Made by a program: the position numbers and the translations under genes. A stretch of 32,000 bases of DNA from Candidatus Saccharimonadota bacterium (GTDB lineage: Bacteria; Patescibacteriota; Gracilibacteria; BD1-5; UBA6164), in assembly GCA_965227835.1 (NCBI GenBank), contig OZ245768.1, positions 930,001-962,000 on the forward strand, in the 5' to 3' direction. Numbering within the stretch: position 1 is the first letter of the stretch; the number at the start of each line of letters is the position of its first letter. Below are positions 1,236 to 28,822 of the stretch, piece after piece. The notes below the pieces were generated by a model. It was not told the DNA's origin. It ran no database searches and worked only from the letters and a program-made list of their open reading frames with translations.

Positions 1236-1658
1236 AATTAAATTTTTATTTAAAAAATAATGGTAGATAAAAATAACATTCTTGAAGAAAAATTAACACC
1301 TAAAGATAGACTAAGAATTATTCTAACTCCTGAAGATTTCAAGGACTATGAAAGAATGGTTGAAGAATCTTACGGTAAAATATCTTGGGAGAAATTGGAA
1401 GAATATAGTGAATTTGATGAAAATCAAAACTTGAAAGGTATATATTGGAAGGGGAATTTAGATTTAAGTTGAACTTCTATAACAAGCTTAGGGAAATTAA
1501 AATATGTTTGAGGATATTTAGATTTAAAATGGACACCTATAACCGATTTAGAATATTTAGAGAAAATTTGAGGATATTTAGACCTAGAATCAACTTACAT
1601 AAAAGATTTATGAGAATTAAAAGAAGTTTGGGGAAGTTTAAATTTAGCTTGAACTAAA

Positions 1659-2864
1659 GGGACCTCTGCAAAAAGATAGATTTAAATTACAAAAATATAA
1701 TAAAAAGATTAAAATATGATAAATATTTTAATTTTTTTTTAATGATTATGTCACCATTTAAAGAACAACAAACATTTTTGAATTATTTCCAAAATGAGTT
1801 ATGAATTACAAGAACAGAAAAGTTTCTAACAAAATTAGATAAAGTAGTCCCATGGGAATCAATATCAAATAAAATTAATTTATCTAGAGAAATATCAGAT
1901 TGATGAGTTTGAAGACCAAGAATGGAAATACAAAAAATGTTAAAAATACTATTTCTTCAATGACTATATGGATTATCAGATCCGGAAATAGAAGATCAAA
2001 TAAGAGACAGAAATAGCTTTCAAAAGTTTCTATGAATATCTGAATCTAAAGATATACCAGATGAAACAACAATATGTAGATTTAGAAATGAATTATCAGA
2101 AAACTGAAGTCAGGAAACTATATTTACAATGACTCAATTTATTTTAGCTGAAATGTGATTTACAGTAGAAAAGTGATTTATTCAAGATGGTACTATAATA
2201 GAATCACCAAAATGAAGAAAGAATAATAAATGAGAAAATACAAGAGATAAGGAAGCTAGTTTTACAAAGAAGAATTGAAGAAGTTATCATTGATATAAAG
2301 CTCATATTGAAACAACAAAGAGAGGAGACTTTGTAATGAATACAACATATACGACAGCTAAGATACATGATTCACAATTATCTGATACTTTAATGACTTG
2401 AGATGAGAGTGAAGAGGCATATTGAGATAGTGCCTATATAAGTAAAGATAAAATAAAATTTTTAGATGAGTTATGAATTAAGTGAGAGTTCAATGAAAGA
2501 TGATCTAGAAATAATCCGTTGACTTCTTATCAAAAAGAACAAAATAGAATTAAATCTACTATTAGGGCAAGAGTAGAACATCCTTTTTCTATTTTAAAGG
2601 CTAAATATTGAAATTATAAAACAAGATATAGATGATTAGTTAAGAATGCTATGCACTGGTTTTTATCTTGTGCTATTTATAATTTTGAACTATTGGCAAG
2701 GAGGTATATATAGCTTTCTAATAGGTGAATTGTGCCTAAATTTGGAAATTATACCTAAAAAAAGGCATAATTCATAGAAATTATCTTATATATTCTTCAA
2801 AAAAAGTGATTTTTATTCAAAATCACTTTTTTCTTGTTCTTTTCAACAATATTGCAGAGGTCCC
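1659..2864 (+). mobile_element. IS5-family insertion sequence (about 1.2 kb)
   Basis: Terminal inverted repeats are GGGACCTCTGCAA (1659-1671) and TTGCAGAGGTCCC (2852-2864). They are flanked by direct TAAA (1655-1658 and 2865-2868). The uninterrupted target gaacTAAAataaaaag is seen at 4091-4106. Confidence 0.9.
1742..2713 (+). CDS. IS5-family DDE transposase, 323 aa
   Basis: Table 25 gives a single 972-nt ORF. Family-typical strings are GRPRMEIQKMLKILFLQGLYGLSDPEIEDQIRDRNSFQKFLGI, KKNGRSYHGYKAHI and RARVEHPFSILKAKYGNYKTRYRGLVKN. Every TGA sits at a position that is Gly in IS5-type transposases (GRP, FLGI, HGYKAH, YRGL). Confidence 0.9.
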
Positions 2865-3626
2865 TAAAATAAAAAGTTTAGGAAAATTGACAAAAGTTTG
2901 AGGCTTTTTAAATTTAAAATGAAGTTCCATAATAAATTTAGGAGATTTAGAGAAAGTTTGGGGAAGTGTAAATTTAGATTGAACTAAAATAGAAAGTTTA
3001 TTTAAACTAAAAGAAGTTTGAAGAAGTTTAGATTTATCTTTTACTTCTATAACAACCCTAGGAAATTTAGAGAAAGTTTGAGGAAGTTTAGATTTATCTT
3101 TTACTTCTATGATAAGCCTAGGAAATCTAAAAGAAGTTTGAGATAATTTAGGTTTGAGATGAATATCAAGAAAAAATATAAAAAATATAATAAAAGAGAT
3201 AAAAGATAAAAAAATACATATATGAGGTGAAATTATATATGATTGAAGAGCTTTAGACATTTATAAAGAATTTTCAATTTTCTTTAACTACTTGTGAGAA
3301 TTTAATGATGATGAAAATTTAGATAATTCAAAAATAGAAAAAGAAAAACAGGAATTTATCAAAAAATACTGAACTAGTAAAACGAAAAGATCATATTCAG
3401 TAAAAAAAGATTTAAATTTAATTGCAAACATATTTTTTTACTTTCTTATAGATAATATCATAGAAAAGTGAGCTAAAACTAAAAATCAGATAGAAGAATT
3501 AAAAAAAAGTAATAGAGATGAAAAAAGTATAAAAGAAGAAATAATAAGTTTAAAGTTAGCATTACACAATAAGTTGGATGAAAAATTTAGTGAAATAAAA
3601 CATTACTTTTGAGAAGATATAAAAAA
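2865..3626 (+). repeat. 762-bp block identical by eye to 4095-4856 (3' halves of LRR paralogs 2 and 3), part of a ~1.23-kb tandem gene duplication
   Basis: Line-by-line comparison found no mismatch until 3627/4857. The 5' parts (1215-1658 vs 3655-4098) differ at a few scattered positions. Confidence 0.85.
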
Positions 3627-3699
3627 AAGATTAGAAGATGAATTTAAAATGGAAATGACAAAGAATAGTGATGATAATTAAATTTTTATTTAAAAAATA

Positions 3700-4983
3700 A
3701 TGGTAGATAAAAATAACATTCTTGAAGAAAAATTAACACCTAAAGATAGACTAAAAATTATTCTAAATCCTGAAGATTTCAAGGATTATGAGAGAATGGT
3801 TGAAGAATCAGAAGGTATTATTTCTTGGGAGAAATTGGAAGAATATAGTGAGTTTGATGAAAATCAAAACTTGAAAGGTATATATTGGAAGGGGAATTTA
3901 GATTTAAGTTGAACTTCTATAACAAGCTTAGGGAAATTAAAATATGTTTGAGGAAATTTAGATTTAAAATGGACACCTATAACCGATTTAGAATATTTAG
4001 AGAAAATTTGAGGATATTTAGACCTAGAATCAACTTACATAAAAGATTTATGAGAATTAAAAGAAGTTTGGGGAAGTTTAAATTTAGCTTGAACTAAAAT
4101 AAAAAGTTTAGGAAAATTGACAAAAGTTTGAGGCTTTTTAAATTTAAAATGAAGTTCCATAATAAATTTAGGAGATTTAGAGAAAGTTTGGGGAAGTGTA
4201 AATTTAGATTGAACTAAAATAGAAAGTTTATTTAAACTAAAAGAAGTTTGAAGAAGTTTAGATTTATCTTTTACTTCTATAACAACCCTAGGAAATTTAG
4301 AGAAAGTTTGAGGAAGTTTAGATTTATCTTTTACTTCTATGATAAGCCTAGGAAATCTAAAAGAAGTTTGAGATAATTTAGGTTTGAGATGAATATCAAG
4401 AAAAAATATAAAAAATATAATAAAAGAGATAAAAGATAAAAAAATACATATATGAGGTGAAATTATATATGATTGAAGAGCTTTAGACATTTATAAAGAA
4501 TTTTCAATTTTCTTTAACTACTTGTGAGAATTTAATGATGATGAAAATTTAGATAATTCAAAAATAGAAAAAGAAAAACAGGAATTTATCAAAAAATACT
4601 GAACTAGTAAAACGAAAAGATCATATTCAGTAAAAAAAGATTTAAATTTAATTGCAAACATATTTTTTTACTTTCTTATAGATAATATCATAGAAAAGTG
4701 AGCTAAAACTAAAAATCAGATAGAAGAATTAAAAAAAAGTAATAGAGATGAAAAAAGTATAAAAGAAGAAATAATAAGTTTAAAGTTAGCATTACACAAT
4801 AAGTTGGATGAAAAATTTAGTGAAATAAAACATTACTTTTGAGAAGATATAAAAAATAGGTTGAAAGATGAATTTGAAAAAGAAATGGCAGATCTAAATA
4901 TCTATAAGAAAAAATCTAAAAATAAACTTAAATCAAAATACATAAACATAAAAAATATAGTAAAAAAATTATTTAAGAGCTAA
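3700..4983 (+). CDS. LRR protein paralog 3, intact, 427 aa (N-terminal domain, >=8 LRRs of 20 aa, charged/coiled C-terminal domain)
   Basis: A continuous 1284-nt frame with 18 in-frame TGA (Gly) and no TAA/TAG, checked codon by codon. Repeat pattern: LDLSGTSITSLGKLKYVGGN / LDLKWTPITDLEYLEKIGGY / LDLESTYIKDLGELKEVWGS / LNLAGTKIKSLGKLTKVGGF ... There is no signal peptide and no SD. Confidence 0.85.
3901..4380 (+). repeat. Tandem 60-bp coding repeats (one 20-aa LRR per unit, 8 units)
   Basis: The period is exactly 60 nt, so units line up with the 60-nt sequence lines. Consensus is gatttaNNNtgaactNNNataNNNNNNttaggaNNNttaNNNgaagtttgaggaNNNtta. The same repeat type occurs at 1-110, 1455-1658 and 2866-3150. 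Confidence 0.9.
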
Positions 4984-5040: not shown

Positions 5041-5071
5041 TTGACTTATAATAAATAATTATTATTATATA
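5041..5071 (+). promoter_or_regulatory. Sigma70-like promoter of the 5108 gene (TTGACT -35, AT-rich -10 region)
   Basis: TTGACTTATA at 5041-5050 matches the -35 context of the three cassette promoters at 20305, 20986 and 21592. TATTAT lies at 5063-5068. The downstream leader tttttacatttcaaaatAGGAG resembles the cassette leader ttttccaatttttcaaaaAGGAG. Confidence 0.5.
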
Positions 5072-5107
5072 TACTTGTTTTTACATTTCAAAATAGGAGA
5101 AATTAAA

Positions 5108-5503
5108 GTGAAAAACAAAAAACTAGTCAAAAAGACATATGTTTGTTTTATGTCTCATAAATCACTTTTGCCAAAAGAATTATTGATAGAAGTGAAAGAG
5201 CGTAATCCAGAAAAATTGGATATTCCCGTTGACTGTATAGCTTTTCAATTTTTTGATGTTATTGGTAGAGAAGATAAAAACAATCACAAAGAAAAAGCTA
5301 GAAAACATAGTAACAGGGTAAATATATCCAATTTATACTATGTTGATGCAACTATTAAGGATAAGGACCAAGTTACTAAGGAAAGAGGAGAGGATTGTCT
5401 ACTACTTTTTAACATGTCAGTAAATGGTTGGGAAAAAGTCGTTCAATGTAAGAATGGTCACATAGAACCACTTAGAGTAGGTGATATCTTTGTTACTACA
5501 TAG
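5108..5503 (+). CDS. Hypothetical protein, 131 aa, TGA-free, GTG start
   Basis: AGGAGA sits 7 nt upstream of GTG 5108. The track's TTG 5075 start has no SD. It ends at TAG and is followed by a hairpin. I recognise no family. Confidence 0.55.
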   Translation: MKNKKLVKKTYVCFMSHKSLLPKELLIEVKERNPEKLDIPVDCIAFQFFDVIGREDKNNHKEKARKHSNRVNISNLYYVDATIKDKDQVTKERGEDCLLLFNMSVNGWEKVVQCKNGHIEPLRVGDIFVTT

Positions 5504-5526
5504 TAATAAAAATTATATCCTATTTG

Positions 5527-5560
5527 TTAAGCCTTCTTTATAAAAAGAAGGCTTAACTTT
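5527..5560 (+). terminator. Stem-loop terminator after the 5108 gene
   Basis: TTAAGCCTTCTT-tataaa-AAGAAGGCTTAA, followed by cttt. Confidence 0.55.
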
Positions 5561-5565
5561 TACAC

Positions 5566-5605
5566 AAAAAAAGAAGCCAACTCTTACGAGTTGGCTTCTC
5601 CTATT
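5566..5605 (-). terminator. Intrinsic terminator of the four-gene operon (bidirectional)
   Basis: GAAGCCAACTC-ttac-GAGTTGGCTTC. It is flanked by an A7 run on the + strand (a U-run for the minus transcript) and by ctattttt on the other side. Confidence 0.8.
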
Positions 5606-5649
5606 TTTGTTAAAATAAACCATACTTTTCTTGAAACAAGAAAGTAAAT

Positions 5650-6435
5650 TTATCCACAAAAGCCTTCATTGGCAGTTTGACTGAAAGAACCAGCATTTTG
5701 ACTAGCTCTTACAGCAGACTGACTGAAAACTTGAAAGGCCTTTCTAATCTCACTTTGAGAATTTCCAGGTGTGAGAATCCATTCATCACGAACACCCATA
5801 TCCGAAAAAACTCGCTTGAAATTAGTACGACCATCATCAATACCCATACCTGCAATAATGTGAACTTCACTAAGAAGCATATCATTTACAATTTTTTTTA
5901 CCTCAGGTGATTCTGCACGGGAATGTTCATCACATCCATCAGTAATAAAAAGTGTAGCTGTACGACAGGAAACTCCACTATCATTAAACTGCTTACATTT
6001 TGCAAGCACTGTTGCCAAGGTAACAATAGCTTTATCAAATAAAGGAGTTCCACCCATAGGAGAGTATTGCTGACTTATATCTATGTCTCCAGATATTGGC
6101 TGACAAGGATACAAAACTCCACTATTCATAGCAATAGCATAAACTAGTATGCTATCTTTTTGCTTAGAATCATATAGAGATTTAATTACCTCATCATGCC
6201 CATCAATAACAGTTTGAGTATTGTTGGAATAACCAATAGAACTTGAATCATCAGCCAATATTGAAACAATCATGACTTCGCTTGATTCAATATCAATATC
6301 CTCAGGAGTCAAACCAAGACCTTCTTGGATTTGAGCTCCCATATCATTGATTTTTATGACTTCACGAGCCTCAGGGGATATGGCCCCTTCTTGCTCAGAA
6401 CCATCAAAAAGATCTTCTAAATTTTGATTACTCAT
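5650..6435 (-). CDS. von Willebrand factor A (vWA) domain protein, TerY-like, 261 aa
   Basis: The MIDAS motif is complete: ILADDSSSIG (DxSxS), MGGTPL (Thr) and LFITDGCDEH (Asp). SD AAGGAGA lies 7 nt upstream. There is no in-frame TGA and the stop is TAA. Confidence 0.8.
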   Translation of the reverse strand: MSNQNLEDLFDGSEQEGAISPEAREVIKINDMGAQIQEGLGLTPEDIDIESSEVMIVSILADDSSSIGYSNNTQTVIDGHDEVIKSLYDSKQKDSILVYAIAMNSGVLYPCQPISGDIDISQQYSPMGGTPLFDKAIVTLATVLAKCKQFNDSGVSCRTATLFITDGCDEHSRAESPEVKKIVNDMLLSEVHIIAGMGIDDGRTNFKRVFSDMGVRDEWILTPGNSQSEIRKAFQVFSQSAVRASQNAGSFSQTANEGFCG

Positions 6436-6466
6436 TTTTAATTCTCCTTAATAAAAGAGGGATGAT

Positions 6467-6502
6467 GGTAGGAAGAAAAGGTGTAAAGCTTAACTTCCTA
6501 CC
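6467..6502 (-). promoter_or_regulatory. Intra-operon stem-loop between the hydrolase and vWA genes
   Basis: GGTAGGAAG (6467-6475) pairs with CTTCCTACC (6494-6502) around an 18-nt loop. It lies in the 73-nt gap, which is the only sizeable gap in the operon. It could be a partial terminator or an RNA-stability element. Confidence 0.4.
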
Positions 6503-6508
6503 AATATT

Positions 6509-7555
6509 TTAACTAAAATTTGGCCAGTTACCAAAATCCACGGATTTGACAACATTCATACCCGCATTGCGATAACGATCCAAAGCTGCTTCAGCTTGAG
6601 GAGTATAATCAACCAAAATTCCACCCTGACCATCAGGAACTGTAACAGCAGACATACAGTCTTCCATTACATAAACCTTTTTGGAAAGTTCAGAATTTTT
6701 GCTACTTATCTCACCAATTAAATCATCAATAGATGACAAGACACAGTGGCTAGAAGCCTGACCAGCGATAATGATACGATCATAGTTCAACAAAGAATTG
6801 AAAAAATTCGTATTTTTCTGAGCAAGCTGTGTTCCCTTATTATCATGACGACCTAATACTTCAGGCCTCAAAATTGAATAATTCTCTGTAAGAGGATGTC
6901 CACCTTTTATTTCACAAAGACCCTGACTTCCTCTAACATAGCTGTGAAACAATCTTGCTTCCTCTATTACTCCAGCCAATGCATGTCCAGGAGAACCAAG
7001 AAAACAATGTTCAGGCCACAAAAAAAGCTGATATTTACCTTCTTTTTCAAGTTCTTCACAATAGTAAATACACTGTTTCAAAAGCCAAGAATAAGCTCCT
7101 TTATCACCTGTAACTGCTTCTGTAACCAAGGGATTTGGTTTACAAATACCTTTTTTGATATCATCAGCAGTTACAATAGTATGGGAATCAGGGTTTGATC
7201 CATCCTCTCTTACCCAAAAAAATGGGAAAAAGATTTGGATAGGAAAGTGAGTATCAAGAGTGGTAGTAATTTGAGAAATACTACCCATATTTTTATGGAT
7301 AAACTCTGCTATCCTAGTAGAATCCTCTATGGCTCCTTTACCACTTCTACCTGCAACATACAAAGAACCTTCAGGGAAACAGAAATCCTTTTGCATATCT
7401 ATAAGAAGTAAAAGTGTTTTAAGCCTATCCATACTGGCAGGTTTGATGGAATTGGTAGACCTAAAATCATTTGCTTCTGTCGAAATCCCTCTTCGATCCG
7501 GCTGATAATCATAAAGCCCAGAGTTATTAGGGTTGAAAAAACTTGGTATATTCAT
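6509..7555 (-). CDS. Isochorismatase-fold cysteine hydrolase, PncA (nicotinamidase)-like, 348 aa
   Basis: Motifs are colinear with E. coli PncA. LLLIDMQKDFCFPEGSLYVAG matches LLLVDLQNDFCAGGALAV (catalytic Asp). LDTHFP matches DWHP. LWPEHCFLGSPGHAL matches FWPDHCVQNSEGAQL. EIKGGHPLTENYS matches HKGENPLVDSYS (Lys). AGQASSHCV matches GLATDYCV (nucleophile Cys). SD AGGAGA lies 7 nt upstream. There is no TGA. Confidence 0.75.
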   Translation of the reverse strand: MNIPSFFNPNNSGLYDYQPDRRGISTEANDFRSTNSIKPASMDRLKTLLLLIDMQKDFCFPEGSLYVAGRSGKGAIEDSTRIAEFIHKNMGSISQITTTLDTHFPIQIFFPFFWVREDGSNPDSHTIVTADDIKKGICKPNPLVTEAVTGDKGAYSWLLKQCIYYCEELEKEGKYQLFLWPEHCFLGSPGHALAGVIEEARLFHSYVRGSQGLCEIKGGHPLTENYSILRPEVLGRHDNKGTQLAQKNTNFFNSLLNYDRIIIAGQASSHCVLSSIDDLIGEISSKNSELSKKVYVMEDCMSAVTVPDGQGGILVDYTPQAEAALDRYRNAGMNVVKSVDFGNWPNFS

Positions 7556-7569
7556 AATGTTTTCTCCTG

Positions 7570-9417
7570 TTATTTCATCTGGATATTCCAGATATCTTGG
7601 TTAGATTTAATAGCTATTAAGCCAGAAGATCCCGGCAATAAAAAGCTATGAGAGTCAACGAAGCGAGCAGTATCACGAAACTGCTTTGTTTCAACTAAGC
7701 TAGAGTTTTGTGCTTCTATACGCACAATTCCCTCATCACTAGATGAAAAAAGCATATTTCCTATAAAACATTTGCCTCGTATATTTGAAAGCCAATCTCC
7801 AGAGTTCTGATTTGATTGGCTTGAAGCTATAACCTGTCCTTTACTATCTATAAAGTAAGCTGAATTTATTACTTCTCCATTTTGTTTGATAGAAGTAAGA
7901 AAGCATACTCTATTTTTAGAAAAGAAACAAGTAGCATCTATTAGTTGTCCTTTGATACCAGGTATTGATATACTATCATTTATACCTCTGTAATCAGTAT
8001 TAAATAAGAAAAATACACTCAAACCTCCTCCAAAGTAAAAGCCAAAACCCAAACTATCTCCTACCCAAAACAAGGTTCTGTTAGTCAAAACTTGCCCTAC
8101 GGTTTCAGGATAAGAAGGTCCCATATCAGAAACTTTTATCAAACTACCATTTCTTATAAAGAAGCTATTTTTAGAATTAGCTCCCAAAATAGGTAGTCTT
8201 CCATAAGTTTCAGTATCTATGGTTTGGGTTTCATTTTTTCCTAAGATGACAACTTTGTCGTTTTTTCCAACAAGGGTTTTTTCTCCATTTATACGAAAAC
8301 GAATATATGGATCCAAATCACCTTTGACAAAAGAATTATCTCCTTCACGAAAGTAGCTACCTTGAGAGTGATATATGTACCTAAGTTTACCATCTTGAAC
8401 AGTTGCATAAAGTATTTTTCCAGAAGTTGAAAAAATCTTTTTAGCAGAAACTTTTCCTAAGATAACCTCTTTTTCTCTTATGGATGCAGTTTTTTCAGCA
8501 ATTACAGAAAGTAAATTTCCTTGCTCATCAAACTTAAACCTATCCATAATAGAAATTGGGAATTCCTCTCTTTTATCTTCTTTGAATACTTCTTGCAAAT
8601 ATTGCAAAAACGAATCTGGAAGAGTAGAAAGAGGTTTAGCTGGTTTTGGGTATATTACATCATCTGAAAATAGTGTTATGCGTTTTAATGGACGAACTCT
8701 TTCAGGAACTCTATCCTTTTTATCTTTAGGTCTATATACACCACCATAAGGGCCTACATAAATCAAAGTTTGCATAAGCATAATTAGATATGCATACCAA
8801 TCTGACAATTGATTGTGAGGTTTTACAAGTTTAGTAGATTTTGATTTTTTATCACATATCAATGGATCTACAAACTTATTGGTAAAAACATTACAAAAAT
8901 AATTCCCAAACTGGACACTATCAAAATCTATCAAGTAAGGCTTATCTTTTTTTACCAAAACATTCAAGTCATTGAAATCTCCTATCACAACTCCAGCTTT
9001 ATGTACGGATTTAACTATAAAAAACAGATTTTTGAATATTTCTATAACCTGTTTATCACTGACAAACCCTTGTCTAAAACTTTTATTGGAGTATCTAAGA
9101 AGTACCTCTGCATCTTTCACCATATCCATTGTATAACCTACGATTTGTTTTTTTTGATCAAAAGCAAAATCAATAGGTGTAATGACAAAAGGGGAAAAAC
9201 CACTTGGTAGTTTCTTTAGTTTTGTTTGGTGCTCCTTTATTTTTTGAGAAGCACTTTTTTGATCTGAAGGAGAGTTTGCAAAGATGGGATGTTCTGGTGG
9301 TTTAAAGAGCTTTAAAGCCCTAGTTTTTGATATTTCATATATTTCAGCCTCTCCCCCACTACCAATAATTTGGTCAGGAGAAAGATTTACTGATTTATTA
9401 CGTATCAAAACTTTCAT
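7570..9417 (-). CDS. Ser/Thr protein kinase-like protein (YegI/TerY-P-type) with a ~320-aa beta-rich C-terminal domain, 615 aa
   Basis: Kinase motifs are the glycine loop IGSGGEAEIYE, the Lys in RALKLFK, the catalytic loop VIGDFNDLNVLV and the DFG equivalent LIDFDS. The C-terminal half is rich in G/S/beta-strand repeats (...ILYATVQDGKLRYIYH..., ...LFWVGDSLGFGFYFGGG...). SD AAGGAGG is present. There is no TGA. Confidence 0.75.
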   Translation of the reverse strand: MKVLIRNKSVNLSPDQIIGSGGEAEIYEISKTRALKLFKPPEHPIFANSPSDQKSASQKIKEHQTKLKKLPSGFSPFVITPIDFAFDQKKQIVGYTMDMVKDAEVLLRYSNKSFRQGFVSDKQVIEIFKNLFFIVKSVHKAGVVIGDFNDLNVLVKKDKPYLIDFDSVQFGNYFCNVFTNKFVDPLICDKKSKSTKLVKPHNQLSDWYAYLIMLMQTLIYVGPYGGVYRPKDKKDRVPERVRPLKRITLFSDDVIYPKPAKPLSTLPDSFLQYLQEVFKEDKREEFPISIMDRFKFDEQGNLLSVIAEKTASIREKEVILGKVSAKKIFSTSGKILYATVQDGKLRYIYHSQGSYFREGDNSFVKGDLDPYIRFRINGEKTLVGKNDKVVILGKNETQTIDTETYGRLPILGANSKNSFFIRNGSLIKVSDMGPSYPETVGQVLTNRTLFWVGDSLGFGFYFGGGLSVFFLFNTDYRGINDSISIPGIKGQLIDATCFFSKNRVCFLTSIKQNGEVINSAYFIDSKGQVIASSQSNQNSGDWLSNIRGKCFIGNMLFSSSDEGIVRIEAQNSSLVETKQFRDTARFVDSHSFLLPGSSGLIAIKSNQDIWNIQMK

Positions 9418-10261
9418 TTACTTCCTCCTTTGTAGAATATTTTTTTTTGATAACTACTAGTGTAGTATCATCTTTGAGAAGACCTGGTAATAACCTTCCA
9501 TTGTAAATACTTTCTCTGTTAAACAAAGAAAGTTTTCTTGTAATCATACTGGAGTTATCAACATATTTATCTTCTTCCCAAAATTGGCTAATATCTCCAA
9601 CGATATTGTTGGTATTTGGAATAGTTTTGTCACTAGCTTTTATCAAATCAAGAACTCCATCGCTACCTAATAGTATGTTGTCATATTGTTTAGGTTCTAG
9701 AATTTCTTTTATACTGATATCAAGAAGTGAAGGGTTTTCATCAAATAAAGCTGAACCTGTGATATTATACATAATATATGGTGGAGCATTAGCTGGAAAT
9801 GGTCCAGACTCTTTTATTTCACCATCTATTATATATACCCCATCTCCACAAGAAAATATATAAGCTTTTCCACGAACAATAACTATTCCTATTATAGTAA
9901 ACAAAAAATATTGGTTTACTATTTCAGAAATACTATCACCCATACTTTCAGCTAAAACTGAGAGCTTGCTTATAAAACTCATTTTTATTCTATTCCAAAA
10001 ATTGCTTTTTAACTGAGGATTATCTCCAGATTGAAGTAAACGATTTATCTGATCAAATATCAATTTTGAGAGAATCTTAGAAGCTATTTTTGCTCCTACT
10101 TCGCAGTGTTTAGAACTACCACAGCCATCTGCAATTACCGATACCAACACATCATCATTTTTCTCCCAAGAGAAACTATCATGATTATTGGTAAATCCGG
10201 GTTGTCCCGTTTTTATATGGTCAGTTCCCGCTATGGAACCTCCTGCTATTCTAATATCCAT
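9398..10261 (-). CDS. PP2C-family Ser/Thr phosphatase (PP2C_2-like), 287 aa
   Basis: MDIRIAGGSIAGTDHIKTGQPGFTNNHDSF..., VSVIADGCGSSKHCEVGAKIA..., SCGDG... and LLGSDGVLD match the metal-binding Asp motifs of bacterial PP2C. I chose ATG 10261 because AGGAGA lies 8 nt upstream. The track's 10402 start adds 47 low-complexity residues with no SD. The 3' end overlaps the kinase start by 20 nt. Confidence 0.75.
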   Translation of the reverse strand: MDIRIAGGSIAGTDHIKTGQPGFTNNHDSFSWEKNDDVLVSVIADGCGSSKHCEVGAKIASKILSKLIFDQINRLLQSGDNPQLKSNFWNRIKMSFISKLSVLAESMGDSISEIVNQYFLFTIIGIVIVRGKAYIFSCGDGVYIIDGEIKESGPFPANAPPYIMYNITGSALFDENPSLLDISIKEILEPKQYDNILLGSDGVLDLIKASDKTIPNTNNIVGDISQFWEEDKYVDNSSMITRKLSLFNRESIYNGRLLPGLLKDDTTLVVIKKKYSTKEEVNESFDT

Positions 10262-10402
10262 AAATAGTTTCTCCTGTTTTTTCATAGATGTTAATGAACT
10301 AAAGGTGTTGTTTATACATTTAAAGCATTTGTAAATAAAAAATTTTTTGCTTTTAAATAATAAACAATAGCTTTTAAATTTAAATGTCAAAATGACACTC
10401 AT

Positions 10403-10431
10403 ATTTTAATTTTTTATACTAGTTTTGTCAA
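10403..10431 (-). promoter_or_regulatory. Near-consensus sigma70 promoter of the four-gene operon
   Basis: The minus strand reads TTGACA (10431-10426), a 17-nt spacer, then TAAAAT (10408-10403). It lies ~140 nt upstream of the PP2C start. Confidence 0.6.
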
Positions 10432-10667
10432 ATCTTTTTTTAAAAAAATCATTTTTACTTTATACAAAGCAATTATTATAACTGAGAAATTAAAATAGTA
10501 TTGATATTTTACTATTTTTAAACATAATGTCAAATTTTTTTATAATTAAATTAATAAAAGTCAATTATCTGAAAAATTGACTTTTATTTTTGTTAAAACT
10601 GTAAAAATAGTTTGAACTTAATAAATTTTATATAAAAAACCACAAGACAAATACAATTTTTATTATC

Positions 10668-10752
10668 TATCCTCCTGTTCTATTCTTGTTCTATCCCCTC
10701 TCCTTCCAAAAGGAGAGGGTTAGGGTGAGGGCTTGTTTGGGTTAGGATGAGG
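10668..10752 (+). repeat. GC-rich hairpin repeat, copy A
   Basis: ttctatCCCCTCTCCttccaaaaGGAGAGGGttagggtgaggg...gggttaggatgagg. It shares a ~50-nt core with copies at 11217-11308 (same orientation) and 28782-28822 (inverted). Confidence 0.85.
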
Positions 10753-10846
10753 TTTTATATGAAAATGAAATGACTTTACAAGTATATTAGAAATATAATG
10801 AAATCTTGAACAAATGAATGAAAATTACAATTTTTGAGAAAAATTT

Positions 10847-10874
10847 TTGACATTTATAAAAATAAATATATAAT
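10847..10874 (+). promoter_or_regulatory. Consensus sigma70 promoter (TTGACA-16-TATAAT)
   Basis: TTGACA at 10847-10852 and TATAAT at 10869-10874. Together with the terminator at 11137-11170 it delimits a ~290-nt transcription unit. Confidence 0.6.
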
Positions 10875-10984
10875 CGTATTCACGAGAATAGAAAATTTGC
10901 TTTTTCTGTTTAATTTTTAAACCTTTAAATAGCAAATCTATATATCTCGTATAGTTTTGCTGTTTCTTATTCAGGAAAATTGTT

Positions 10985-11131
10985 ATGTGGATTTTTATTT
11001 CCGCTTTATCAGCTTCATTATCTCTATATGAGGGACTCGAAAGTGAAAATAATTTTTTTCTTTCGCTTTGTCTGTTCAGTTCATTCGGATTTATATACTT
11101 TATCAATGAATATAATAAACAGCAAAACTAG
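10985..11131 (+). CDS. Possible small hydrophobic protein, 48 aa (the unit may instead be a non-coding RNA)
   Basis: MWIFISALSASLSLYEGLESENNFFLSLCLFSSFGFIYFINEYNKQQN. AGGAAA lies 6 nt upstream of the ATG. The stop is TAG, 6 nt before the terminator hairpin. There is no TGA. It is the only plausible ORF in the promoter-terminator unit. Confidence 0.3.
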   Translation: MWIFISALSASLSLYEGLESENNFFLSLCLFSSFGFIYFINEYNKQQN

Positions 11132-11136
11132 AAAGA

Positions 11137-11170
11137 CTCCCCCAGTTCAAACTGGGGGGTTTTCTTTTTT
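11137..11170 (+). terminator. Strong intrinsic terminator
   Basis: CTCCCCCAGTT-caa-AACTGGGGGG, followed by ttttctttttt. Confidence 0.85.
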
Positions 11171-11216
11171 CAAAAAATCAAACTAAATATAAAAATTAGA
11201 GATAAGTTATTTTCTT

Positions 11217-11308
11217 TCCCCTCTCTCTGTCCCATCCCTTCTGTTCTATCCCCTCTCCTTCCAAAAGGAGAGGGTTAGGGTGAGGGACTGCTCGGGTTAG
11301 GGTGAGGT
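11217..11308 (+). repeat. GC-rich hairpin repeat, copy B
   Basis: ttctgttctatCCCCTCTCCttccaaaaGGAGAGGGttagggtgagggactgctcgggttagggtgagg. It is a direct repeat of copy A, ~545 bp away. Confidence 0.85.
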
Positions 11309-11394
11309 GAATAAAATTAGTATGAGGAATTATAATAAAATAGAAGCAAGAAATGTTAAAAGAACCTATAAATAAAATATATTTAAAATTATAA

Positions 11395-16083: not shown

Positions 16084-19083
16084 ATGTTTGATCCATCAAA
16101 AATAAACTTAGATTTAGAAGGCAATGAAGGTGAAAATACTCCTGAAGAAAGCAAAAAACAGGAGGAAACAATAATTAATGAACAAGATAATATAGATTCA
16201 TTAGAAAATAAAGAATTGGAAACCAAAATTGAAAACAAAGAGGAAAATCAAAACCAAGAAGAAAAAGAAAATGAGGTTTTAATAGATAATATAGATGAAG
16301 AAAAAGTGGAAGAAAAAAAAGAAAACTTAGATGTCTTTGAAGAAAAAGAAGTAAATGAAACAGAACAAAATCAAAACCAAAAACAAGAAGAAGATGAAGA
16401 AATAAAAAAAGAAAATAGGACTCCAAACGAAAATGAGTCTTCAAATCAAAATCAATCCCCGATACAAGATAAGATAGAAGAAAAAGAAGAAGAAAAAATT
16501 ATATTTGATATAAATATAAACTCTCTTGATTATTTAATGAAATACCTAGTATCAAAAGAATATGATTTTTTTGTACTAGAGCCAGAAGAAGACAAAATAA
16601 AAGTAAGCTTTAGAAAAGACAATTTAGAAAAAGAACTGAAATATATAAAATACCCTACCTATACAAATATATTGCTCAAAGCAAAAAGTCTCACAAAATT
16701 AAAAATAGAAGAAACAAACATAAGCCAAGAATGAACAGCTGAAGTATCTATGAACAAAAAAGTTTATAAAGCTTTATCAAAAACAGCACCAAGCACATCC
16801 TGAGAAAAATTATTTTTCAAAATGGCAAGTACAGAAAAAAAAGCAGAAACGAAAAAGAAAAAGGGGATGAGTTTTGGAAAAATGATGTCAATATTTTGAG
16901 GTTTATTTTTCACAGCAATATTGATTTGATGAGTATTTATATCAATAGTACTTTTCAACTCAAACTCCATATCTGACCTACAATTTTTCAATAATCTATG
17001 AGTAAACACAAATGCCATAAAAGATTTTGCAGCAAAAGTAGTAAATTGAGTTTTTGGAATGATACTTGTAGTTGAAATAATAATACTTTTTATCTTCTCA
17101 TACAAAGCACTTTTAACAAAAAAAGATTTTAAAAAAGATAAAATAACAAGAATAATAATATCTATGTTTTTCCTAGTTTTATCAGTAATAACCTTTATAA
17201 CTTGGATGTTTTTAGCTCAAAAAATTAACTCACTGAAAGGATTGAATTATTGAAAAGTTGAATTTTACGATAACTCCAAATATCTATCAGAACTATTTTG
17301 AGAACAATGATCAAAAATAAATATATCAGAAAAAATTATATGACCTATAAATATAAGATTCAACAACAAGGAATTTATCCAAAAACTAGTAGATGACTGA
17401 TTTTCTCCGCAATCCGTAACTTGGGTAATATGAAAAACAAAAAAAGAAGTAGCAGTAGAAGATTATGAAACAACATATGAATTTAGAGAAAAATGACTTA
17501 CAGATGTAAACCTTGTCATAAGTGGTACAAATATAAAATGAGAAATTGAAGAAATAGAAAAAAATATATGAAAAATAAATATTTCAAACACCGTAAAAAT
17601 AGAAGAGATAAAACTAGACAACGGATGATCAAAATTTGTATTTGATGCTTCTGATCTAAGGTCTCTTTGAAAAGTAAAATGGTATTATATACCTTCTTTG
17701 GAATGAAAAACAGATGATGAGATTAATAATATAGTGGCAAAATCTCTAAGTAAAGAAAAATTAGAATGATATAAATTTAATTCTAAAAATATATTTGAAT
17801 GAGAGGAGTATTATTGAATAAAAATAGTAAACTCTTCATGAGAACCAGAAGAGCTAGATAAATTATTTATTATATCAAAATGAGATAAAAATGAAGTATC
17901 ATGAGAAATAGAAAGTATAAATGATCCAAATGATGATAAAAAATATAGCTTTGTATTTAAAAACCCAGAAACAAATATATGAGAAGCATATATAAGCAAA
18001 TATGTTTGGAGAATACAGGATTTTGGTGATTCTGGTGAGGAAAACTATGTAGTTATAGAAAAAGATGCAAATCTAAGTAATTTAGAAAATTCAAGTAAGA
18101 TAAGCTATACTTTTAAAAAACAGTGAATACATAATGTAGTACTTGATATAATAGACTCTGATTGAAAAACACAAACTTTTACAGATAAAATAGAGATTAA
18201 AAAAAGCCTAGATTTACTTACAAAACTAAGCTTCAAAGTTGATAATAGAGAGTTGAAATATGGTGAAGACATTATATATGAAAGAGAAAATAATACTTAT
18301 TACCTAGAAAATATCCTTGCTCCAAGTTCTATAGAAATAGATGCTAATAAAATCAGAACTACGAGTTGAAGGTATGGATTAAAAACTGTAGAGTTTGATT
18401 TGGACAGTGATTGAAGTTTTGAAACGATAGAGAGAAAAACAAAATATGATTTAATCAAAGGTTGAATAAAAAGCTTTAAGGTGAAGTATAAATTTGTAAA
18501 CAAAAACATACAAGAAGAAATAATTGATATAGTTGAAACTATTCATATAACTTGAACAGATAGAGAAGCAATACTAGATTTAAAAATAATAAAGCCAAGT
18601 TCTTATGTACCTGTTATAGTGAAATTTGATGCATCAAATTCTAAGGTAAATTGAAAAGATATAGAGAAATTTATATTTGATTATGGAGATTGAACAGAGC
18701 CTGAGGAAAGGGATTCTATAAATAGCTGACGCAGGTATGTAGAGGCATGAGAATATGATATAAAGCTAAGTGTAGTTACTTCTGATTGATCAAAGTATGA
18801 TTTGAAGAAAAAGCTTATTTTGAGAAATAAACCTCAAAAGGCAGTAATAAGTACGAGTTTAAAAAAAGCTCCAGTTTATCAAACAATTGATTTTTCGGCT
18901 GAAAAGTCTATATGAGAAGTATGAAGTTATTTTTGGGATTTTTGAGATGGGAGTACATCCACTAAAATGTCTCATAGTCATTCTTATGATAAAGCTTGAA
19001 AATATAGTATAAAGCTAGAAATAGAGTTTAGTAACAAAAATATATTGAAAGATGAAATTGAAATGGAAATATATGAAGATTAG
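16084..19083 (+). CDS. Large membrane protein with an acidic low-complexity N-terminus, a GspE/PilB-N-like segment, 3 TM helices and multiple extracytoplasmic PKD domains, 999 aa
   Basis: An exact 3000-nt table-25 frame, checked line by line with no TAA/TAG. PKD signatures are FDASNSKVNGKDIEKFIFDYGDGTEPE...YVEAGEYDIKLSVVTSDG and IDFSAEKSIGEVGSYFWDFGDGSTS...HSYDKAGKYSIKLEI. TM segments lie at ~16885-16960, 17050-17103 and 17152-17217. Confidence 0.85.
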
Positions 19084-20170
19084 GAAATGTGAAAATTAAA
19101 TGAATTTGGTAATGGTCCTTTAGATAGGTACCACCAATTTTAGCAAGATTATCTAGGATAAGGACAGGGAAATTATTAAATTTTGTAGGAAGAATTATAT
19201 TACAACTTCTAAGTTTTTCAATAGGACTTAAACCGTTCATACCTATTCAAAAAGAAGGTCTATAATTATTATAAGTATAAATATATTTACTACTATGGTT
19301 TAAAAAATTAGGAAGAGATTTCATGCGATCAAGATAAGGTCTATATAATTCTTCATCATCAGTTCTATGAGATCTCTCTACAATTCATTGAAGATATTTT
19401 TTTCAAGCAGGAATACTCTTAAAACAGCAATTTATATTATTTAATATAGCATTCCACTGATTTTCCTTTCTCTTACTTCATCCACAAAAATCAGCAGGGC
19501 CATTATCTCATTGAAATTCCATATGATAATATATTCACATACTCCTAAGATATGTAGCTATAGTAAGTATAAACATAAGACCAAATTCAGAAGAAAGACT
19601 ATGAGAATAAGCTATAAATTTATATTTTGTTTTAGCACATATATATGTCCATTGATATAAAGGAAGATTATATTTTCTTAGTATAAAACAAAGTTCTCAT
19701 AAAGCTTCAAAATCTTCTATATGCTTTGTATCTACTTGACCATACTCAAAGGGAAGAATATTTTGATAATCGTATAGAGGTTTACTATCTCATTTTCTAC
19801 GAGAATAATGATGCTTTTTTACTTTGTTTCTTTTTAGTATATTTCATATAGTAGAGGAAGAGAATGTTATTCCATATCTGAGGAATAAATACTTTGCTAG
19901 ACGTACTCTTCAATATTTTGTTTTATTTCGTTCTTGTAATACAAGTCATTCTAAATCAGAAGATGTTTTTTTATTATGAGGAGTCTTAGGAGCTCTTGAT
20001 ATATTTTCTATAGGACCATCTCTACTTCTTCTTACTGTTTTACGAGAACATCATAATATATAAGCTGTTTTACTTACGTTTCCTTTGTTTTCTTCAAGTA
20101 TCGACCTCGCGAGGATTCTTGCTGATTCTACTCCTTGCTTAGTACACATTTTTTCATATAATCATTTCAT
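19028..20170 (-). CDS. IS481-type DDE transposase (HTH + integrase core), 380 aa
   Basis: The HTH is ...NVSKTAYILGCSRKTVRRSRD. The catalytic triad context is YGQVDTKHI, EFQGDNGPADF and IVERSHRTDDEE. It is a 1143-nt table-25 frame. The ORF has no stop inside the IS and reads through the left IR into flanking DNA, ending at TAA 19028-19030, antisense to the last 56 nt of the PKD gene. Confidence 0.8.
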
Positions 20171-20285: not shown

Positions 20286-20304
20286 AAATTAAATGAATTT
20301 TTTC

Positions 20305-20332
20305 TTGACTTATATGTAATAATTTATATAAT
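20305..20332 (+). promoter_or_regulatory. Cassette promoter 1 (TTGACT-16-TATAAT)
   Basis: TTGACT at 20305-20310 and TATAAT at 20327-20332. The conserved leader ttattaacttttccaatttttcaaaaAGGAGtttttt leads to ATG 20378. Confidence 0.65.
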
Positions 20333-20377
20333 ATAGACTCTTATTAACTTTTCCAATTTTTCAAAAAGGAGTTTTTT

Positions 20378-20839
20378 ATGGAAAAAAATGATTCGGGTTA
20401 TGATCCTATAAAAATTTTTTTTATTTCAATTCTTTTTATTATTGCCCTTATGCCGCTTATAATTTCTATAAATGCGAAAGAACAAAATGCAAATAAGTTT
20501 CTAGAACATTATGGGGTAAAAATAGATATTTTAAATTCAACCATAAGAATTAGATCAACTTTGGTTTTAGAAAGTTTTGGTAATTCTTTCCCCCATTATG
20601 ATTATGATGGATATAGCCAAACTCATCTAGCAGATATTGATCTTTCGTATGAGGAAAAAGAAATTGTAATTGGATCTTTAGCTCAAAATTTCCCTTCTAA
20701 TACTAAGCTAAGTTTTTTAAATTTTCCAGAAAATGAAAAAGGAGAACTTTTATCAATTATAAATGAAAATTTTCCTAATCATTACGAAAGTATAGATTTT
20801 GTTTATAGTAGAGAAGAGGATAAATATCCTAGCTTTTAA
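20378..20839 (+). CDS. Cassette protein 1: small membrane-anchored protein, 153 aa, TGA-free
   Basis: SD AAGGAG lies 6 nt upstream. The N-terminal TM is IKIFFISILFIIALMPLIISI. The C-terminal motif ENEKGELLSIINENFPNHYESIDFVY is shared with the 21060 and 22650 products. The stop is TAA. Confidence 0.7.
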   Translation: MEKNDSGYDPIKIFFISILFIIALMPLIISINAKEQNANKFLEHYGVKIDILNSTIRIRSTLVLESFGNSFPHYDYDGYSQTHLADIDLSYEEKEIVIGSLAQNFPSNTKLSFLNFPENEKGELLSIINENFPNHYESIDFVYSREEDKYPSF

Positions 20840-20893
20840 CATTTAAAAACTAAAAAGGAGCTATAAAAAATTGAGATTTTTAGAAAAAATCTC

Positions 20894-21068
20894 ACGAGAG
20901 AGCCAGCTTTGCTGGCTCTCTTTTCTTATTTTTTAATATTATGTTTTAGAATTAAATAAAAAACTTAAGATTTCAAGATTTTTTCTTGACTTATTTTAAA
21001 ATATTATTATAATATATAGTACTTATTAAGTTTTCCAATTTTTCAAAAAGGAGTTTCTTATGGAAAAA
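20894..21068 (+). repeat. 175-bp terminator-promoter-leader-ATG module, copy 1 (near-identical to 21500-21675)
   Basis: acGAGAGAGCCAGCtttGCTGGCTCTCTtttcttattttttaatattatgttttagaattaaataaaaaacttaagatttcaagattttttcTTGACTtattttaaaa...TATAATatatag.acttattaa.ttttccaatttttcaaaaAGGAGttt.ttATGgaaaaa. It contains the terminator hairpin 20896-20921 plus T-run, and promoter 20986-21013. Confidence 0.9.
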
Positions 21069-21494
21069 TTTAATGTGCCTGTGCTAAAATATATGAAAAA
21101 AGGCATTATATCTTTAGTACTTTTGGTATTTACTTATTGGGGATATACATTTTTTGATAAACTGCCTGACTCTCCGATTGAATTCATGGGTGTTCCTCTT
21201 GTTATTATTGTATGTATTTGGTTTCTTTTAGGAAATTCCAAAAAAAATTCAGCTTTAATTGCTTGCTTATTTTTATTAGCTTTTGCAATTTTTGGTATGA
21301 AAAATTCAATATCAAAACAAAGTGAACTAAATGAAATATTACAAGCATACAATGTATCTGGAGATTTTTATAGTAATGGAATACTTAAGGTTTTCTCAGT
21401 AAATAGTGAGCTTTCGTCTCAAAGAAAAGGAGAAATCAAACAAATTTTAGGAGGCATATATCCTAGTCATGAAATAGTATTTGTGACTAAATAG
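21060..21494 (+). CDS. Cassette protein 2: small integral membrane protein (3 predicted TM), 144 aa, TGA-free
   Basis: The SD is AAGGAG. TM segments are GIISLVLLVFTYWGYTFF, MGVPLVIIVCIWFLLG and ALIACLFLLAFAIFGM. The C-terminal domain YNVSGDFYSNGILKVFSVNSELSSQRKGEIKQILGGIYPSHEIVFV is shared with the 22650 product. The stop is TAG. Confidence 0.7.
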   Translation: MEKFNVPVLKYMKKGIISLVLLVFTYWGYTFFDKLPDSPIEFMGVPLVIIVCIWFLLGNSKKNSALIACLFLLAFAIFGMKNSISKQSELNEILQAYNVSGDFYSNGILKVFSVNSELSSQRKGEIKQILGGIYPSHEIVFVTK

Positions 21495-21499
21495 GATAT

Positions 21500-21675
21500 A
21501 CGAGAGAGCCAGCTTTGCTGGCTCTCTTTTCTTATTTTTTAATATTATGTTTTAGAATTAAATAAAAAACTTAAGATTTCAAGATTTTTTCTTGACTTAT
21601 TTTAAAAATATTATTATAATATATAGCACTTATTAACTTTTCCAATTTTTCAAAAAGGAGTTTTTTATGGAAAAA
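21500..21675 (+). repeat. Terminator-promoter-leader-ATG module, copy 2
   Basis: It differs from 20894-21068 by a few substitutions and one extra A. It has the terminator hairpin 21502-21527, TTGACT 21592-21597 and TATAAT 21615-21620. Confidence 0.9.
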
Positions 21676-21690
21676 GTAAAAAAGTTTTAG
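21667..21690 (+). pseudogene. Remnant of a third cassette gene (MEKVKKF-stop)
   Basis: It has the same promoter, leader and ATG-GAA-AAA start as cassettes 1 and 2. The frame stops after 7 codons, immediately before the IS200-like element. Confidence 0.6.
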
Positions 21691-21694
21691 CTTT

Positions 21695-25344: not shown

Positions 25345-28683
<3,339 letters not shown>

Positions 28684-28781
28684 CAATAAATTTTTTAAAT
28701 ATTTAATTCTATTAGTTTGTTTATAAATGATTAGATATACCTGAACTAAGACGAGTTTTTTTCAAAAAAATATTTGATTAA

Positions 28782-28822
28782 ACCTCACCCTAACCCTCTC
28801 CTTTGGAGGAGAGGGGATAGAA
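28782..28822 (-). repeat. GC-rich hairpin repeat, copy C (inverted relative to A and B)
   Basis: The reverse complement reads ttctatCCCCTCTCCtccaaaGGAGAGGGttagggtgaggtt. Confidence 0.8.

Follow-up and report, generated by a model that had tools for sequence, protein, structure and literature searches.

An NAD-linked kinase-phosphatase operon without in-frame TGA in bacteria that read TGA as glycine

Can part of a bacterial chromosome stay independent of the genetic code that the rest of the chromosome uses? Codon reassignment is usually taken as a genome-wide, all-or-none change and as a barrier to gene flow and to phages. The question is raised here by a 32,000-nucleotide stretch of DNA (the window) from an AT-rich cellular genome, that of a Candidatus Saccharimonadota bacterium of the Gracilibacteria (contig OZ245768.1, positions 930,001 to 962,000). 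In the window TGA is a glycine codon, but a block of genes at 5041-11312 contains no in-frame TGA. A first-pass annotation had taken this block for recently acquired DNA of a standard-code donor or a mobile element and, more speculatively, for genes kept readable in both codes. We find that the core of the block is a four-gene, NAD-linked operon, widespread but uncharacterised, which has long been resident in recoded genomes and which selection has probably kept free of the reassigned codon. The sample is this one 32 kb window; its locus is referred to as W and the loci compared with it by numbers with the prefix L.

The window encodes LeuRS, RecA, TrxB, RbfA, a U32 peptidase and several transposases, and the flanks of the block have a guanine plus cytosine (GC) content of about 0.25. 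The assignment of TGA to glycine is confirmed by conserved residues, as the glycines of the GxGxxG, GGG and AAGD motifs of TrxB and those of the RecA motif TTGGNALKFY are coded by TGA. In the native genes (n = 14) 271 of 389 glycine codons (70 %) are TGA, and in TrxB 27 of 32. The annotation's count of 17 TGA in a 221-codon gene should be 14. A recoded phage with TGA-free early genes was considered as the source of the window and rejected, since the flanks encode LeuRS, RecA, TrxB and RbfA. No matches to PHROG structural or replication families were found in the block, which is without phage hallmark genes, and its flanks are cellular.

Six open reading frames (ORFs) at 5108-11131 contain no in-frame TGA over about 1,700 codons, and the TGA-free genes end in TAA or TAG throughout. 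Shine-Dalgarno (SD) sites of the AGGAG type precede seven of the eight TGA-free genes of the window but are missing from all 19 genes with TGA (Fisher p = 9e-6). Matches to consensus promoters were located at 10847 (12/12), at 10533 and 10431 (11/12, minus strand) and at 5041 (10/12), and hairpin terminators at 5569-5602 and 11138-11159. The GC content of the TGA-free genes is 0.31-0.37 compared to about 0.25 in the flanks, the excess being mostly in codon positions 1 and 2; at the third position it is 0.22, compared to 0.16. On all these points, i.e. the missing TGA, the stop codons, the SD sites present on the block and absent from native genes, the TTGAC-type promoters and hairpin terminators and the lower AT content, the annotation was accurate. 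The set that it outlined is real but too small, as two further TGA-free, SD-led genes are found outside the block, at 20378-20839 and 21060-21494. In the four large genes that form the operon, all 115 glycines are coded by GGN, and TGA trinucleotides are distributed over codon frames 1, 2 and 3 as 0, 26 and 96. TGA is common in the other two frames, and therefore its absence belongs to the reading frame.

The four-gene unit that had been proposed is real, although it lies on the minus strand. In the order of transcription it consists of a PP2C phosphatase gene (9398-10261), a Ser/Thr kinase/beta-propeller gene (7570-9417), a PncA-like nicotinamidase gene (6509-7555) and a gene for a von Willebrand factor A (vWA) protein with a metal ion-dependent adhesion site (MIDAS; 5650-6435). 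Two promoter-like sites, TTGACA-N17-TAAAAT and TTGACA-N16-TAAAAT, each matching 11/12, lie upstream (10403-10533, minus strand). The PP2C protein (287 aa, 0 TGA) is recognised by Pfam PF13672 PP2C_2 with E = 3.6e-13 and 50 bits (cut-off 24). Its ORF is open upstream to 10402; the start was placed at the ATG at 10261, behind an AGGAGA SD site, on the basis of that site and of homologue lengths of 270-278 aa. The start of the kinase gene (615 aa, 0 TGA, 44 GGN) overlaps the end of the PP2C gene. The Pfam Pkinase match is slightly below its cut-off (29.5 compared to 31.7 bits, E = 6e-7), but in the AlphaFold2 (AF2) model (mean confidence, pLDDT, 92.8) the N-terminal half is a protein kinase, which superposes on eukaryote-like kinases, and the C-terminal half an all-beta propeller; the best Foldseek match is the kinase-WD40 part of LRRK2. 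The consensus of 70 kinase homologues has a CxxC..CxxC Zn-ribbon after the kinase domain, in most between kinase and propeller. The propeller is present in all family members. The Zn-ribbon is absent from the window kinase and its recoded relatives, and has been lost in this clade.

The 348-aa protein (0 TGA, 28 GGN) has an isochorismatase fold with inserts, and its best sequence matches in the PDB are PncA (3pl1, 3r2j) and Pnc1 (2h0r), with a profile E of 0.007. The residues of the Asp-Lys-Cys catalytic triad, D53, K217 and C271, are the same in all 25 homologues compared. Of these, D53 and C271 align with the regions of the DxQxDF and HC motifs in M. tuberculosis PncA, whereas K217 was assigned as the catalytic lysine solely on its invariance. 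The metal site, D101-T-H103 and W180-P181-x-H183 (WPxHC), is also invariant. The protein scores below the family thresholds of Pfam Isochorismatase (25.9 compared to 27 bits) and NCBIfam PRK11609 (23.8 compared to 174), and the predicted nicotinamidase activity is supported by the pncB and nadE genes that neighbour the cassette elsewhere. The 261-aa protein (0 TGA, 21 GGN) has a vWA fold in an AF2 model built with database homologues (pLDDT 89.9); its top 50 Foldseek hits are almost all of the vWA type (integrin I domains, TFIIH p44), and the MIDAS residues D62-x-S64-x-S66, T130 and D166 are complete and invariant. The profile of this family gave no match against PDB sequences or Pfam, and the window protein itself no Pfam VWA hit. 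PADLOC, PHROGs and NCBIfam gave nothing specific for the proteins of the block, only weak kinase-domain matches being obtained with PADLOC. The operon is a phospho-signalling triad resembling TerY-P, built around an enzyme of the NAD-salvage type.

The kinase has more than 1,500 relatives of 38-50 % identity over the full length, and a scan of species-representative genomes gave 312 loci in Patescibacteria, Cyanobacteria, Planctomycetota, Myxococcota, Acidobacteriota, Gammaproteobacteria and others. Of 85 loci from many phyla, at least 63 show the unbroken order PP2C, kinase, PncA-like protein and vWA protein. In the DNA retrieved for the 81 standard-code loci, a homologue of the NAD/ADP-ribose-sensing repressor NrtR is found in 47 of them, mostly directly upstream of the PP2C gene, nicotinate phosphoribosyltransferase (NAPRTase, PncB) in 21, NadE in 10 and an ADP-ribosylglycohydrolase in 6. 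NrtR and other NAD genes adjoining the operon were also looked for in the recoded loci, and none was found. A complete cassette is present on L086, a 91-kb standard-code, phage-like contig on which 8 of 10 proteins tested match phage families. Kinase relatives occur on 13 IMG/VR contigs (L088-L100, 42-545 kb), and all but one of these contigs have the whole cassette, in several cases beside NAPRTase and NadE genes and in none with NrtR nearby. On these viral contigs the cassette looks like a phage-borne module for NAD salvage and signalling. In one standard-code locus of 53 % GC (L003:5822-13330) the cassette is followed by a NadD-like gene and by genes for NAPRTase, NadE, PnuC, NadR and NrtR; within the stretch of L003 examined a second pncA was not called, which suggests that the cassette enzyme fills the role of PncA there.

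Known systems resemble the operon in part. The TerY-P triad combines a TerY-like vWA protein, a PP2C phosphatase and a Ser/Thr kinase with a Zn-ribbon (Anantharaman et al. 2012, as summarised in PMC10542128), and stand-alone anti-phage versions have been described (Gao et al. 2020, in the same summary). Compared to the triad as summarised there, the operon similarly unites a vWA protein with MIDAS, a PP2C phosphatase and a Ser/Thr kinase, which in most homologues has a Zn-ribbon. However, by the same summary it differs in having a fourth invariant partner, the PncA-like nicotinamidase, in the large C-terminal beta-propeller of the kinase, in the absence of the Zn-ribbon (or an OB fold) from the window's clade and in its context, which is NrtR and NAD salvage and not tellurite-resistance or restriction genes. 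It also differs in its PADLOC matches, which are weak ones to the kinase domains of PD-T4-6 and MkoA, with none for the vWA or PP2C protein. The NrtR regulon comprises pncA-pncB-nadD-nadE under the Nudix-related repressor NrtR (Rodionov et al. 2008, PMC2330246). In most standard-code loci the PncA-type enzyme likewise adjoins nrtR, pncB and nadE, but in the cassette its gene sits between the kinase/phosphatase pair and the vWA gene, and recoded genomes and viral contigs are without an adjacent nrtR. The four-gene cassette is not described in the main text of the NrtR regulon paper or in the survey of NAD/ADP-ribose conflicts, and the literature yielded no description of it elsewhere, nor any of chromosomal TGA-free operons.

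The operon is also found in other recoded genomes. When the block was sought in related genomes, as the annotation had proposed, it was present at the same place in L001, an independently assembled strain of 97 % identity, and the operon was present in three recoded lineages. In the three collinear genomes L002, L084 and L085 the kinase is 59 % identical to that of the window and the native flanks have 9-23 TGA per gene. In the third lineage, L101 and L102, the identity is 46 % and native genes have up to 41 TGA. Five contigs of recoded genomes from the three lineages have no in-frame TGA in the operon, and in W, L001, L002, L084 and L101 its stops are all TAA or TAG as well. Three TGA codons occur in L085, only in the out-of-frame tails of its frameshifted kinase gene and truncated vWA gene. 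The operon at L085:2168-5734 appears decayed, with the kinase split into 514 + 99 aa and the vWA gene shortened by a deletion of about 185 nt, but sequencing errors may also account for this. The closest relatives of the genes of the block are all from TGA=Gly genomes, the kinase being 59 % identical compared to at most 50 % in standard-code organisms. The annotation had held that its reading would fall if the best hits all lay within Gracilibacteria/SR1 and had TGA-containing orthologues; the best hits are indeed from recoded genomes, but the orthologues are TGA-free as well. The lineages of W and L002 are united in one clade (bootstrap 100 %), inside which no standard-code or viral sequence is nested. 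The nearest outgroup examined, L213, uses TGA stops.

The operon has resided in these genomes for long. Between L002, L084 and L085, synonymous divergence (identical amino acid, different codon) amounts to 0.26-0.35 for the operon and to 0.23-0.41 for the native flank, i.e. both have diverged together. In a flank gene, 5-7 of 25-27 conserved glycine pairs switch between TGA and GGN, and over three comparisons there were 18 such flips compared to 12 between GGN codons, about equal frequencies. In the operon, the glycine codon has changed in 40 of 112 pairs between L002 and L084, and TGA is involved in none of the changes. In L101 the relative synonymous codon usage (RSCU) of the operon correlates with that of native genes with r = 0.92, yet TGA codes for 0 of 125 glycines compared to 62 % in the native genes. 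Arg (AGR/CGN) and Leu (TTR/CTN) provide an internal control, as their first-position choices have shifted towards host usage. Had glycine shifted like Arg and Leu, 49-66 TGA codons would be expected in W, 58-87 in L101 and 13-56 in L002 (P of zero at most 1e-6). TGA stops are found in 0 of 16 operon genes, compared to 95 of 297 standard-code homologues (32 %). The exclusion of TGA is thus specific to the reading frame and independent of lineage, and the SD sites of the operon are conserved. As a description, genes readable in both codes is apt (0 TGA and no TGA stop in 16 genes).

We assign a probability of roughly 55 % to the reading that this is an old resident operon, kept TGA-free by long purifying selection, whose independence from the codon is needed when TGA decoding fails. 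Purifying selection would keep the operon without in-frame TGA and TGA stops in TGA=Gly bacteria, and it would also have retained the SD sites, though native genes, including those for ribosomal proteins, are without them. We infer that what selection maintains is independence from the host's private codon. A TGA-free, SD-led mRNA is translatable without tRNA-Gly(UCA), would not suffer from a reading of TGA as stop and would also be legible to the ribosomes of a standard-code cell. The likeliest reason for such selection may be that the module must work when TGA decoding is unreliable, e.g. during phage takeover or an NAD/ADP-ribose conflict; the next likeliest would be that copies keep passing through standard-code-compatible phages. 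Robustness in conflict is preferred on the grounds of the NAD/ADP-ribose context, the analogy with TerY-P and the existence of phage-encoded release factor 2 (RF2), which has been reported (bioRxiv 10.1101/2021.08.26.457843).

Several observations weigh against selection for robustness in an old resident operon. The literature consulted documents no phage acting against the decoding of TGA in code-25 hosts. The operon is widespread and resembles NAD housekeeping under NrtR, so that a role in defence would follow from its context and from the analogy with TerY-P; none of the PADLOC models for TerY-P matches it. RSCU of the operon correlates with that of native genes with r = 0.79 in W and 0.51 in L002 and is closer to that of other operon copies (r = 0.81-0.94). 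L101 is joined to the other recoded lineages with 10 % bootstrap only; a monophyletic origin of all recoded-lineage operons was considered and is unsupported at this value, and the operon has possibly entered more than once. W and L001 are mosaic over the vWA and PncA-like genes (5778-7572), which are 87-94 % identical (85 % for the vWA protein), compared to 98.5-100 % for the kinase, the PP2C gene and the flanks. This pattern points either to a recombination tract or to the vWA protein being under diversifying selection, and with a recombination tract continuing gene flow could contribute. The frequency of TGA-free genes in this organism is based on 32 kb of its genome. In a wider count, which covered 533 ORFs with at least 6 Gly in clearly recoded DNA totalling about 492 kb, 20 ORFs were TGA-free, 11 of them in the operon-bearing loci W, L101 and L085; with those loci left aside, TGA-free genes make up about 2 % and are without SD sites. 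They are short ribosomal protein genes, for which chance is a sufficient explanation, a PhoH-PIN gene (L130:2648-4000, 27 Gly) and a PyrF/phosphoribosyltransferase pair (L152:3431-4961, 32 Gly). The latter two are significantly TGA-free in TGA-rich genomes and are candidates for code-neutral or recently imported genes. The ratio of coding densities under codes 25 and 11 was useless for detecting recoding at higher GC.

The main rival explanation is continuing traffic, whereby chromosomal copies would be overwritten from a pool of standard-code-compatible phages or elements that keeps TGA-free, SD-bearing versions. We regard this as possible but doubtful. Most phages predicted for Gracilibacteria are without in-frame TGA (Liu et al. 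2023), the cassettes of L086 and of the IMG/VR contigs lack NrtR like the recoded copies, W and L001 may differ through recombination in their vWA and PncA-like genes, and operon codon usage is more alike between lineages than to the hosts. However, integrated prophages are all TGA-dense (Liu et al.), the viral copies are only 26-44 % identical, the clade of W and L002 (100 %) has no standard-code or viral sequence inside it, and synteny is stable in L002, L084 and L085, where operon and flanks have diverged in parallel. A recent horizontal acquisition from a standard-code donor, with no time to gain TGA or to lose SD sites, was the first choice of the annotation and is in our view improbable. 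It is favoured by a GC content above that of the flanks, by codon usage that is only partly host-like in W and L002, by insertion sequence (IS) elements nearby and by the mobility of the cassette, which has clearly moved across phyla and is carried by phage-like contigs; the other likely imports, PyrF with its phosphoribosyltransferase and PhoH-PIN, are TGA-free too. But among 5.8 billion proteins no standard-code relative exceeds 50 % identity while recoded relatives reach 59 %, and the operon has co-diverged with its flanks through heavy synonymous turnover without gaining a TGA. The codon usage of L101 is fully host-like and still TGA-free, and every stop has already moved off TGA. Neither an integrase within 5041-11312 nor a tRNA gene (tRNA scan) nor an element-specific repeat or border was found. 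The operon is also not patchy, being at the same site in L001 and present in three recoded lineages; only the small unit at 10847-11170, described below, is strain-specific.

Translational optimisation would imply that TGA is decoded slowly or inaccurately and that genes expressed at a high level do without it and rely on SD sites. In keeping with this, the TGA-free units have consensus promoters and strong SD sites. We used ribosomal protein genes as a control, with rpsL genes fished from metagenomes by a TGA-coded conserved glycine (108 loci). In the AT-rich locus L138, 13 of 14 glycines of S12 are coded by TGA, as are 72 % of the glycines in ten ribosomal protein and IF1 genes, none of which has an SD site. 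Pooled over 80 loci, TGA makes up 25-64 % of the glycine codons of ribosomal protein genes, again without SD sites; this is somewhat less than in some other genes and so speaks to a degree for optimisation. The EF-Tu P-loop GHVDHGKTT with both glycines as TGA had no match in the metagenome contigs, compared to 108 for the single-TGA S12 pattern, which would likewise favour optimisation; tuf was not seen near rpsL in the retrieved loci. Since ribosomal protein genes use TGA and are without SD sites, being TGA-free and SD-led is not a signature of high expression; in addition TrxB uses TGA for 27 of 32 glycines, and a mere preference cannot yield exactly 0 of 115-125 glycines in three lineages. 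Optimisation is therefore a very improbable explanation. Still less credence is given to the idea that the genes are meant for a standard-code partner or prey after DNA transfer, like the T-DNA of Agrobacterium in the plant. Unlike native genes, the TGA-free ones have a full set of standard signals (sigma-70 promoter, SD site, intrinsic terminator and code-neutral ORF), and the small units encode membrane-protein orphans; however, neither machinery for transfer nor border sequences came to light, in free-standing standard-code bacteria the operon is an ordinary one controlled by NrtR, and no such mechanism is known for the bacteria studied here. A chimeric assembly of a standard-code contig with a recoded genome might be suspected from the abrupt change of coding style at both borders, but its probability is negligible. 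The junctions recur in the independent assembly of L001, and their repetition excludes a chimera; analogous junctions between operon and native genes occur in L002, L084, L085, L101 and L102, from different samples and assemblers, and the source contig is 1.49 Mb long.

Codon-defined expression classes are known from Streptomyces, in the bldA/TTA regulon, and recoded phages keep the reassigned stop out of their early genes (Borges et al., bioRxiv 10.1101/2021.08.26.457843). The operon is similar to both in that a subset of genes is set apart by one codon decoded by one tRNA, but here the situation is cellular and inverted, as nearly all genes need the special tRNA and few are exempt. We know of no regulator of tRNA-Gly(UCA). 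Phages compatible with the standard code have been predicted for Gracilibacteria and Absconditabacteria, most of them without in-frame TGA, whereas all integrated prophages were TGA-dense (Liu et al. 2023, PMC10746230). The operon resembles these phages in being tied to a code-25 host, in having no in-frame TGA and in being translatable in codes 11 and 25. It differs from them in being chromosomal and cellular, inherited with TGA-rich neighbours and free of phage hallmark genes, and its exclusion of TGA is demonstrated by codon-level comparison and not by absence alone.

Dual-compatible sequences and codon-defined classes were thus known before; here they are attached to an uncharacterised, NAD-linked, TerY-P-like operon. 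If a chromosomal operon is indeed exempted by selection, through deep divergence and beside neighbours that are fully recoded, a private codon can split a genome into dependent and independent sets of genes. The operon provides a handle on the translation conflict between code-25 bacteria and their phages, on the movement of genes across the code boundary and on the function of this widespread NAD-linked operon. The presence of the cassette on phage-like contigs near pncB and nadE links it to NAD depletion and reconstitution during infection. In practical terms, the TGA-free genes of these uncultured bacteria lend themselves to direct expression in E. coli.

The remaining TGA-free genes of the window are not parts of the operon. 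The 5108 gene (5108-5503, plus strand) has 131 codons and no TGA, starts with GTG after AGGAG (or with ATG at 5150) and ends in TAG. It is a transcription unit of its own, convergent with the operon, with a promoter-like site TTGACT-N16-TATTAT at 5041-5068 (plus strand) that resembles the promoters of three cassettes at 20.3-21.7 kb. Two GC-rich hairpins between the convergent units (5527-5602) form a bidirectional terminator region. Its only homologues come from the source genome and from L001, the latter in diverged form, and it had no Pfam, PHROG or PADLOC match. The mini-ORF unit (10847-11170, plus strand) consists of a perfect promoter, TTGACA-N16-TATAAT, a structured leader, a 48-codon hydrophobic ORF (10985-11131) and the terminator at 11138-11159. 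Its transcript folds with z = -7.3, a 19-nt helix pairing the leader with the 3' end of the ORF (10952-10970 with 11112-11130). A 48-aa hydrophobic peptide and an mRNA 5' end folded onto the 3' end are also features of type I toxin-antitoxin systems. A promoter scan detected no strong minus-strand promoter inside the unit, and the unit matches no Rfam family; the Rfam scan gave no RNA family at the gathering score, its sub-threshold matches being confined to the surroundings of the mini-ORF.

The three tandem cassettes (20290-21720, plus strand), each with a consensus promoter, an AAGGAG SD site, a TGA-free ORF and a terminator, have near-identical promoters, leader/SD sequences (CCAATTTTTCAAAAAGGAGTTT, three exact copies) and terminators. 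Their bodies are unrelated: TGA-free membrane orphans of 153 and 144 aa and a 7-codon stub. No relative of the 153-aa ORF was found among 1.84 billion representative proteins. The cassettes have native-like codon usage (RSCU r = 0.91) and transposase genes on both sides (19028-20170 and 21742-22119), and a unit of the same build is present in L101 (15594-16046). Phage morons are autonomous promoter-gene-terminator units. The 5108 gene, the mini-ORF unit and the cassettes are separate orphan units of this moron-like kind, each with a sigma-70-type promoter, an SD site, a short orphan ORF and an intrinsic terminator. They differ from morons in lying outside a recognisable prophage, in their host-like composition (r = 0.91) and in being TGA-free in a TGA-rich genome; they are TGA-free without a sign of foreign composition. 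Tentatively, a small "bilingual" gene set, consisting of the operon and the moron-like small membrane proteins, all with standard promoters, SD sites and terminators, could constitute an emergency or cross-code regulon, with one missing codon as its defining feature. Such a set could be made when TGA decoding is off, whether by the action of a phage (RF2, attack on tRNA-Gly(UCA)) or of the cell itself, or alternatively it might be expressed in a standard-code partner.

The mini-ORF unit is located between two copies of a GC-rich hairpin repeat (CCCTCTCC..GGAGAGGGTTAGGGTGAGG) at 10687-10753 and 11242-11308 (both plus strand). The annotation had correctly recognised these direct repeats (67 nt, 93 % identical) but had placed the edge of the block there. 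As borders they were rejected, since the family is dispersed: it is intergenic and REP/MITE-like, with hairpins at 10712 and 11267 (plus strand) and at 28783 (minus strand), the third copy spanning 28775-28820. The unit is absent from L001, which has one copy of the repeat, and recombination between repeat copies may explain its presence or absence between strains.

A few features of the flanks are worth recording. Paralogues with leucine-rich repeats (LRR) stand in tandem at 1260-4983 and 234-665, the ORF at 234-665 resembling a C-terminal fragment of another copy. One and the same gene occupies 3700-4983 and 1260-3681, but at 1260-3681 it is interrupted by an IS5-like element (1655-2875) whose transposase gene (1742-2713) carries 20 TGA. 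The element is mobile, yet fully TGA-coded; in the sister strain L001 a 98 % identical copy (7746-8966) is located at a different site, ahead of the PP2C operon and near window position 10462, which indicates that the element is active. The LeuRS gene (25345-28683, minus strand) is unusually long, with 1,112 codons, and has a lysine-rich insertion of about 150 residues in the middle of the protein.

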